From Escherichia coli (GTDB lineage: Bacteria; Pseudomonadota; Gammaproteobacteria; Enterobacterales; Enterobacteriaceae), in assembly GCF_003334815.1 (NCBI RefSeq), contig NZ_QOWO01000018.1: 64,000 nucleotides of DNA; one strand, written 5' to 3'. The notes under the pieces are model-generated. The model was not told where the DNA came from and did no database searches. It saw only the letters and a program-made list of their open reading frames with translations. Of the stretch, positions 10,407 through 10,517 are shown piece by piece (position 1 is the first letter of the stretch; every line of letters starts with the position of its first letter). The position numbers and the translations under genes are program-made.

Positions 10407-10517
10407 GCCCTCACCCCAACCCTCTCCCACAGGGAGAGGGAGAAAATCAGCGCCGATTTTAACACTGTGCTCGATCGGTCCCCTCGCCCCTTTGGGGAGA
10501 GGGTTAGGGTGAGGGGC
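10407..10517. repeat. Inverted pair of GC-rich hairpin units (box C-like intergenic repeat)
   Basis: Unit gccctcaccccaaccctctcccacagggagaggg at 10407-10440 and its inverted near-copy ccctcgcccctttggggagagggttagggtgaggggc at 10481-10517; each unit is itself a hairpin. Confidence 0.5.

Follow-up and report, generated by a model that had tools for sequence, protein, structure and literature searches.

Background

The closest described relative of the repeat analyzed here is BoxC, an intergenic element of Escherichia coli on which Bergler et al. (1992) and Bachellier et al. reportedly wrote the earlier literature. One and the same motif carries three names: BoxC, in use in the 1990s, PIT element (potential intrastrand triplex; Hoyne and Maher, 2000 and 2002) and TMECO (triplex motif of E. 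coli; Holder et al. 2015, PMC4666352). Published BoxC units are 51–59 bp long, and the published counts for strain MG1655 are 23 TMECO motifs and 33 BoxC units. Subtypes are recognized by the second loop, TTA defining type A and CCG or TCG type B (PMC4666352). Two inverted units stand together at five MG1655 sites, each time one of type A and one of type B, and the K-12 copies are unbiased as to the class of the flanking genes and as to distance, orientation and operon position (Holder et al. 2015, PMC4666352).

The structural and functional record of the family comes largely from the same source. The isolated G-rich strand of K-12 sequences formed a stable triplex in vitro (by CD and NMR), while no triplex was formed by duplex BoxC and no protection was seen by DMS footprinting in vivo (PMC4666352). 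In the form in which Hoyne and Maher (2002) is cited there, PIT elements blocked DNA polymerase in vitro with no effect in vivo, had neither promoter nor terminator activity and left RNA polymerase unaffected, in what apparently were single units in reporter contexts. Among E. coli strains, motif loci were also found to vary far more than intergenic regions used as controls, and partial deletions at paired sites often left a plain hairpin, which was called the 'palindrome effect' (Holder et al. 2015, PMC4666352).

Here, a pair of such units between two genes of an E. coli contig (NZ_QOWO01000018.1, assembly GCF_003334815.1) was compared with BoxC and with other families of short intergenic repeats. 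An initial annotation, made from the sequence alone, had offered a transcriptional attenuator, an mRNA stabilizer or a box C-type repeat as its possible identity.

Methods

The window is the whole stretch of DNA that was analyzed (64 kb), and all positions refer to it. Gene coordinates were those of the RefSeq annotation of a record identical to the window over positions 9400–11600, a segment that many complete E. coli chromosomes carry at 100% identity. The published TMECO regular expression (CCCTCNCCCN3-6GGGNGAGGGN3GGGNGAGGG[GTC]; consensus from PMC4666352) was applied to the window; written 5′ to 3′, this BoxC/PIT/TMECO consensus is CCCTCNCCC-N3-6-GGGNGAGGG-N3-GGGNGAGGG-[G/T/C]. Hairpins, inverted arms and repeated cores were assessed with a repeat finder, with DNA and RNA folding and against shuffled sequences, and triplex potential was scored with the base-triplet rule for the third strand (G.G-C, A.A-T and T.A-T). 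The element region was further scanned for sigma-70 promoters, for intrinsic terminators and, at a permissive E-value, for Rfam families.

Copies in complete E. coli genomes (n = 5426) were located by megablast of a 156-bp stretch. The locus itself was surveyed with the concatenated flanks of the element, which were found in 1279 genomes, and allelic states were sampled across the identity range. For other genera, one genome per species was scanned with the type B tail GGGTGAGGGCATCAGCGCGCAC, which resulted in 62 loci, and the 522 kb around these BoxC loci were screened by tblastn with E. coli RayT.

Results

According to RefSeq the neighborhood is the Flag-2 (lateral flagella) cluster, in which flgA, flgM, flgN, a gene of 309 aa and a glycosyltransferase gene follow one another on the - strand. 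The last two are co-oriented and separated by 178 bp (10359–10536), most of which is occupied by a 136-bp doublet that begins 7 nt past the TGA of the upstream gene and finishes 35 nt ahead of the ATG of the glycosyltransferase gene (Table 1).

Table 1. Positions in the window of the BoxC doublet, its parts and the flanking genes
Feature	Position	Strand	Description
Complete BoxC doublet, 136-bp quasi-palindrome	10394..10529	.	Type B-like unit + 40-nt linker + type A unit; ends GTGCGCGC...GCGCGCAC point outward; arms 86% complementary; aligns end to end with 25 further doublets of several genera
Unit 1 motif, type B-like, 34 nt	10407..10440	-	CCCTCTCCCTGTGGGAGAGGGTTGGGGTGAGGGC; built as CCCTCTCCC-TGT-GGGAGAGGG-TTG-GGGTGAGGG-C
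Unit 2 motif, type 'A mm', 36 nt	10481..10516	+	CCCTCGCCCCTTTGGGGAGAGGGTTAGGGTGAGGGG; second loop TTA; one G.A mismatch in hairpin
Linker, 40 nt	10441..10480	.	AGAAAATCAGCGCCGATTTTAACACTGTGCTCGATCGGTC; inner flanks of both BoxC units and a short variable centre
Unit 1, full extent, 52 nt	10395..10446	-	Motif and conserved flanks; 98% match to the K-12 ilvC-ppiC copy
Unit 2, full extent, 58 nt	10471..10528	+	Motif and conserved flanks; ~95% match to dispersed copies in many E. coli genomes
Upstream gene, 309 aa	10537..11466	-	'Hypothetical protein', in newer records 'lysine-N-methylase' (RefSeq)
Downstream gene, Flag-2 glycosyltransferase, 814 aa	7914..10358	-	RefSeq
Spurious 24-codon N-terminal extension of the glycosyltransferase ORF	10359..10430	-	Runs through unit 1

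The BoxC/PIT/TMECO consensus matched exactly twice in the 64 kb, at the two unit motifs of Table 1, which stand in opposite orientation with a gap of 40 nt. The two inverted hairpin units of about 35 bp, 40 bp apart between co-oriented genes, of which the initial annotation had spoken are thus real. All six occurrences of the 9-mer blocks CCCTCNCCC/GGGNGAGGG in the window lie within these two units, and the 21-nt core CCCTCACCCYAACCCTCTCCC was found twice where shuffles led us to expect 0.01 matches, so that the repeat pair is far beyond chance.

Three K-12 copies, TMECO nos 7, 11 and 15 (type 'A mm'), are identical to unit 2. Unit 1 is one base off no. 20, the type B copy between ilvC and ppiC that in K-12 stands immediately behind the ilvC stop codon, and differs from it in the second loop (TTG vs. 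TCG). Similarity continues beyond the motifs: flanking sequence (...CATCAGCGCGCAC) is shared by the window units with the K-12 ilvC-ppiC and hrpB-mrcB copies, the flanks of unit 2 are conserved across the unit alignment, and the full extents of both units fall within the published range of BoxC lengths. As the second loop of unit 1 is neither CCG nor TCG, its assignment as B-like is based on stem and flanks, and with it the window pair (TTA + TTG) fits the rule that an A is paired with a B; in the orthologous copies L006 and L007 this loop is TCG. With the consensus expression we also recovered the five inverted pairs of MG1655 at their published coordinates.

The genome-wide search for the unit, a check proposed in the initial annotation, returned a multi-copy sequence instead of a unique one, as 4610 of the 5426 complete E. 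coli genomes contained matches to the 156-bp stretch (median, 5 places per genome). Full-length matches were restricted to the Flag-2 locus, the other places being single units of 52–58 nt, and in E. coli the repeat is dispersed, multi-copy and intergenic, as BoxC is. The window pair had moreover been catalogued before: Table S8 of Holder et al. 2015 (PMC4666352) lists both strings with a 40-nt gap in ATCC 8739 (nos 119/120) and P12b (nos 581/582). We checked the ATCC 8739 coordinates, which lie between hypothetical protein and glycosyltransferase genes, beside flgN. Judged by its sequence, the feature is therefore one inverted BoxC (PIT/TMECO) doublet, the family and this very pair being already known, and of the identities that had been suggested for it the box C-type intergenic repeat is the one borne out by the consensus matches, the K-12 identity and the published entry.

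Each unit folds, as had been noted, into a hairpin, with 9/9 pairs in unit 1 (−9.3 kcal/mol as DNA, z −3.7; recovered by the repeat finder as a perfect 9-bp hairpin CCCTCTCCC/GGGAGAGGG at 10420–10440) and 9/10 pairs in unit 2 (−8.6 kcal/mol as DNA, z −2.4). The description as hairpins was incomplete, as each unit has three blocks, the third being G-rich and placed to act as a triplex strand. Under the triplet rule 9/9 Watson-Crick pairs and 9/9 permitted triplets were counted in unit 1, and 9/10 pairs (the 'mm' subtype) with 10/10 third-strand triplets in unit 2; both units are thus predicted to fit a purine-motif intrastrand triplex, i.e., a hairpin with a reverse-Hoogsteen third strand. A conserved outer closing stem for each unit (GCGCTGAT/ATCAGCGC, 10399–10406 and 10446–10453) was also considered and dropped, as its inner half is missing from the single ilvC-ppiC copy of K-12.

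The symmetry is not confined to the motifs. Inverted arms of 35 nt (10394–10428 vs. 10495–10529) were identified by the repeat finder, and as DNA the whole 136-nt block is predicted to fold into a single long hairpin of −48 kcal/mol (z −8.5 and −9.2 for the two strands). Folding of the transcript, another of the proposed checks, led to the same picture: in the transcribed sense, the 156 nt from 10385 to 10540 (...TGTGCGCGCTGATGCCCTCACCCCAACCCTCTCCCACAGGGAGAGGGAGAAAATCAGCGCCGATTTTAACACTGTGCTCGATCGGTCCCCTCGCCCCTTTGGGGAGAGGGTTAGGGTGAGGGGCAAAGCGCGCACA...) gave one long hairpin of −96.4 kcal/mol (z −10.1; as good in 0/200 shuffles) with a nearly continuous stem of ~55 bp, and as the doublet is quasi-palindromic a similar RNA hairpin is expected whichever way it is oriented. 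The two GC-rich units are one composite element rather than independent units; the 'pair of units' of the initial annotation stands as to their number, and the pair has to be seen as one recurrent composite.

Regulatory signals were sought in the element region. The promoter scan found 0 sigma-70-like sites, and the terminator scan returned 2 terminator-like sites vs. 0.8 ± 0.8 in shuffles, a count not above shuffles and with none of the sites at the big hairpin. No T-run was found behind either unit or behind the long hairpin, past which the - strand reads TTCATCACATTCACCC. No Rfam family reached its gathering threshold at the permissive E-value (best 34.4 bits vs. a threshold of 90), and the sub-threshold matches, which were to plant and animal miRNA hairpin or precursor models, were rejected as generic long-hairpin matches.

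At least six allelic states were distinguished at the site. (a) The order of the window, B(-)-40-A(+), was read in the window, L006 and L007, and five full-length megablast matches sampled at 94–100% identity include short flanks and are thus collinear with the window. (b) About 527 of the 1279 genomes have an allele of 87% identity with no element, in which both genes are kept and the gap is 46 bp; this gap has a small hairpin of its own (GGCCGG-gaaaa-CCGGCC) and is non-homologous to the window flanks. (c) The intact doublet is reversed, A(-)-40-B(+), in TB06051 and WL297. (d) Three units (A, A, B) were read in EC1515, and five more genomes matched with equal coverage and identity. (e) In 16 genomes the doublet is reversed and has lost its two third-strand blocks by deletions of 8 and 12 nt, which leaves plain hairpins and abolishes the consensus match in both units. 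(f) ET350 has lost nearly the whole element by a deletion between TGCCC(T) direct repeats, with 19 nt left. Orientation counts among the ~752 filled genomes (at least 16 collapsed and flipped, at least 7 intact or expanded and flipped) are lower bounds only, as megablast coverage is strand-blind for a quasi-palindrome.

Presence or absence of the element tracks deep allele lineages (87% vs. > 90% flank identity), and part of the polymorphism is therefore old divergence and not recent instability. Because the element-free gap is non-homologous to the window flanks, the insertion point and a target duplication are undefinable, and a clean insertion is not claimed from the ~527 continuous flank alignments. 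In TB06051, identity of the flipped copy to that of the window is 87%, compared with 91–94% in the flanking genes, and the left flank of the copy differs as well. That flipped alleles arose solely through recombination between the arms was likewise not established: with the divergence of the TB06051 copy, inversion is inseparable from independent acquisition or gene conversion.

Outside E. coli, the 62 loci all belonged to Enterobacteriaceae or Erwiniaceae (Pseudocitrobacter, Enterobacter, Leclercia, Lelliottia, Silvania, Citrobacter, Escherichia, Pantoea, and Huaxiibacter) and held 145 consensus motifs, which formed 67 adjacent pairs. Outward pairs prevailed (37, with the modal gap of 40 nt seen in the window) over inward (24, modal gap 17 nt) and direct ones (6), and nearly all 67 consisted of a TTA-type and a CCG-type unit. 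Twenty-six outward doublets could be aligned over the full ~136 nt including the linker, and non-orthologous Pseudocitrobacter copies were 80–87% identical to the window doublet (70–77% in the linker). In Pseudocitrobacter faecalis, doublets form tandem arrays with a period of 125–126 bp, up to ~1.1 kb or ~9 doublets long.

Where the window has REP/BIME repeats, between the rod-binding-protein gene and flgK, other E. coli strains were seen to carry a second doublet of the same architecture.

Discussion

The locus shares with BoxC/PIT/TMECO the consensus, the two subtypes, conserved flanks, units of ~52–58 bp, an intergenic position and the inverted pairing of A with B. It departs from the published elements in the TTG loop of its type B-like unit, where MMC-J-0085 and ECCNB12-2 carry TCG, and from the K-12 pairs in geometry, as four of the five K-12 pairs are inward with gaps of 16–27 nt, whereas the window pair is outward with 40 nt and resembles in this respect the K-12 lldD-trmL pair (gap 59 nt). 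There is no categorical difference between the window pair and known BoxC.

We consider it probable that the doublet is a structure-prone, unstable repeat with no dedicated regulatory role in Flag-2. Neither a sigma-70 site nor a U-tract behind the structure nor an Rfam family above threshold was found, and the published tests, as cited, were negative. Whenever the DNA becomes single-stranded in replication, repair or transcription, the hairpin- or triplex-forming units and the 136-nt quasi-palindrome would impede or misalign the replisome. Deletions between short direct repeats would follow, as would the loss of third-strand blocks, partial duplications and the presence of the element in both orientations; in the mRNA the doublet would ride along passively as a long stable hairpin. 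The collapsed states (e) and (f) match the products that would be expected of slipped-strand events at a hairpin or palindrome, and they agree with the 'palindrome effect'. How much of the instability would be owed to triplexes is conjecture, given that no stable triplex was seen by DMS footprinting in vivo. To judge from the allele comparison, the gene pair would appear to function, or at least to be conserved, with or without the element.

A rival explanation, with an appreciable though minority chance, is a REPIN-like mobile element: the 136-bp doublet and not the 35-nt unit would have been copied, non-autonomously, by some host or transposase activity and would have entered the site, perhaps repeatedly and in both orientations. 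The doublet recurs, linker included, at non-orthologous places in another genus; gaps are quantized at ~40 nt outward or ~17 nt inward in 61 of the 67 adjacent pairs; the P. faecalis arrays are comparable to BIMEs made of REPs; and both the second doublet beside flgK and the greater divergence of the flipped TB06051 copy than of its flanking genes would suit this reading. Against this stand the missing target-site duplication, which was sought at the doublet ends (...GATGAA/TGTGCGCGC...GCGCGCACA/GAGCGA..., slashes marking the ends), and the lack of a clean empty site in a closely related allele, the intergenic region of the element-free allele being non-homologous. A RayT-like gene was also absent by tblastn from the 522 kb around the 62 BoxC loci, a weak test as RAYTs are single-copy. 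Arrays and flips can moreover be produced by recombination and slippage alone. Holder et al. saw no association with mobile elements and found most loci positionally stable in 56 genomes (PMC4666352).

In organization, the comparison with REP/BIME/REPIN is close. Short GC-rich palindromic units of two subtypes alternate in inverted order with fixed linkers at the same kind of intergenic sites, doublets fold as long hairpins, and both the recurring inverted doublet and the alternating tandem mosaic arrays are found here as well. In sequence the two are unrelated: BoxC has three triplex-capable blocks in place of a simple stem-loop, it shows neither REP-class sequence nor, in the 522 kb screened, a RAYT gene, and it has no similarity to the six REP copies in the window. 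To our knowledge, no RAYT/TnpA_REP-type gene is associated with BoxC. The doublet thus resembles REPIN/BIME in organization only and is not classed as a member. Likeness to MITEs (ERIC/IRU) lies in a length below 200 bp, terminal inverted repeats (35 nt, 86%), an intergenic position, multiple copies and transcription within operons, and an apparent difference in the target-site duplication, none being visible here; we know of no parent transposon or transposase for BoxC. Somewhat doubtful to us, if worth stating, is the wider proposal that BoxC replicates as the ~136-bp A+B doublet and not as the 35-nt motif, the doublet being REPIN-like, non-autonomous and mobilized by a hypothetical enzyme. 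The same reading may also take in the two quantized linkers, the BIME-like arrays, a competition with REP/BIMEs for intergenic sites and the occupation of the Flag-2 site in both orientations. Our literature search returned nothing linking BoxC to REPIN, RAYT or BIME, older BoxC reviews being outside its scope, and part of the picture may perhaps be found already in that older literature (Bachellier et al. 1996/1999). Nor did the search return functional studies of BoxC later than Holder et al. 2015.

That the doublet acts at the level of RNA, on mRNA decay, RNase III processing or termination of the upstream ORF, is the main rival as to mechanism and is rather improbable; the mRNA stabilizer of the initial annotation belongs here, as a minor possibility. 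In a polycistronic mRNA the doublet could block 3′–5′ exonucleases and so stabilize the upstream cistron, could be cleaved by RNase III and uncouple the cistrons, or could impair termination of the upstream ORF. REP elements stabilize the upstream cistron in malE-malF. The position between co-oriented genes, with the long RNA stem so near to the stop and start codons, speaks for such an effect, and flipped alleles are no counter-argument since the hairpin is similar in both orientations. The ~527 genomes with the gene pair and no BoxC speak against it, as do the persistence of collapsed and deleted alleles and, in K-12, the absence of any positional or orientation bias of the copies toward genes or operons. 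In the published tests of PIT/BoxC, as far as they are cited by Holder et al., RNA polymerase was unaffected and terminator activity nil. A 136-nt hairpin of about −96 kcal/mol, 7 nt past a stop codon, could well have consequences for the RNA. These would be at most a by-product and not the element's raison d'être. If the doublet did affect mRNA processing, it would modulate the expression of a putative flagellin-modification glycosyltransferase.

There is very little to be said for the transcriptional attenuator of the initial annotation, by which an intrinsic terminator would keep the glycosyltransferase less expressed than the genes upstream of it. GC-rich hairpins do lie in a transcribed gap within the operon, as in intrinsic terminators and attenuators, and one weak terminator-like pattern occurs in the linker (10467–10448, 7 pairs of which 3 G-C, tail ATTTTCTCCC). 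Unlike those systems, neither the units nor the long hairpin are followed by a U-tract, the scan did not rise above shuffles, and terminator activity was absent in the published assays in the form in which they are cited; the attenuator is thus not supported.

That the repeat codes for the N-terminus of the glycosyltransferase has next to no chance of being true: the frame is indeed open from a GTG at 10430 (ORF 7914..10430, 838 aa vs. 814 aa in the RefSeq CDS), but RefSeq places the start at 10358, the region is missing, flipped or deleted in many genomes that retain the gene (among them the ~527 with no repeat), and identical sequence elsewhere is a dispersed intergenic repeat, all of which upholds the initial view of the extension as spurious.

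Conclusions

As a discovery, the doublet carries little weight, since knowledge of BoxC goes back to the early 1990s and the exact pair stands in a published table, and its practical value lies in annotation. Where BoxC doublets are masked, genes are kept from being falsely extended at the N-terminus and small ORFs from being falsely called; here, this concerns the 838-aa glycosyltransferase ORF and the ORFs of 69 and 108 aa that run over the element. For E. coli, the site is a compact and highly polymorphic marker of Flag-2, and its allelic series offers natural material on the question of whether triplex- or palindrome-forming repeats cause deletion and inversion.

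Allelic states of the BoxC doublet site and its flanking genes

Across E. coli, the site of the main BoxC doublet, between the 309-aa gene and the glycosyltransferase gene, occurs in at least six allelic states (compared in L005, L079, L080, L081, L082, and L003/L004). The first two differ in the orientation of the doublet, which is either that of the window or the opposite one, and the third is an expansion to three units. In the fourth state the doublet is collapsed and both third-strand blocks are missing, while the fifth is a deletion between TGCCC(T) direct repeats; the sixth is an element-free gap of 46 bp with a hairpin of its own (GGCCGG-gaaaa-CCGGCC). 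The RefSeq start site of the glycosyltransferase varies by strain, giving coding sequences of 2439, 2445, or 2472 nt, and no Shine-Dalgarno-like sequence was found 5' of the annotated ATG in either the window allele or the element-free allele.

BoxC and REP repeats elsewhere

In strain MMC-J-0085, the 205 bp that separate the rod-binding-protein gene from flgK hold a second A+B doublet of BoxC, which has the outward architecture of the main one. In the window this gap measures 421 bp and is occupied by REP/BIME-type repeats instead, among them one REP copy and two GCCTGATGCGACGCT...CTTATCAGGCCTAC units. A match of 80–90% was detected in approximately 275 genomes, which probably carry this second doublet. 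The Flag-2 part of the window has six REP copies in its intergenic gaps, one of them just 3' of the stop codon of the glycosyltransferase gene; BoxC units are therefore far fewer than REPs in the Flag-2 cluster. The rayT gene (REP-associated tyrosine transposase) directly adjoins the cluster, between yafL and flhA; no rayT homologue was detectable near the sampled BoxC loci.

Long intergenic BoxC tandem arrays with a period of 125–126 bp and up to approximately nine doublets were present in Pseudocitrobacter faecalis DSM 27453. Types A and B alternate in these arrays, with linkers fixed at 17 nt and 40 nt, an organisation that resembles BIME and of which no description was found in the literature searched.

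Coordinates of repeats and genes in the window and in compared records
Feature	Record	Coordinates	Remark
REP (PU) copies	window	778-807, 7824-7853, 14763-14792, 16792-16821, 20016-20045, 25855-25884	Flag-2 part
REP copy GCCGGATAAGGCGTTTACGCCGCATCCGGC	window	20016-20045	rod-binding-protein gene/flgK gap
rod-binding-protein gene/flgK gap	window	19926-20170	
rod-binding-protein gene/flgK gap	L013 (MMC-J-0085)	1481-1685	
BoxC tandem arrays	L051; L052; L044 (P. faecalis)	4675-5803; 1559-2138; 3915-4287	
rayT	L078 (NZ_CP025903.1)	6131-6628	outside window, ~6 kb upstream of its start
glycosyltransferase start	window	10356-10358	
309-aa gene	window	10537-11466	upstream of BoxC repeat
cytidylyltransferase-family gene	L002 (RefSeq)	7002-7397	about window 7401-7796
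tRNA-Thr (CGT) gene	window	43521-43596	

Genomic context

In a record that was matched to the window over 9400-11600 only, the tRNA that corresponds to the tRNA-Thr (CGT) of the window precedes a tyrosine integrase and an island. This island carries an HsdM-like methyltransferase, zinc-ribbon proteins, an amino-acid decarboxylase/antiporter cluster, and IS1 copies with frameshifts. The tRNA position is offset by approximately 118 bp between the two, which therefore represent different strains. The 309-aa gene is named 'lysine-N-methylase' in newer PGAP records; taken with the large glycosyltransferase next to it and the cytidylyltransferase-family gene, this name suggests a flagellin-modification module inside Flag-2.
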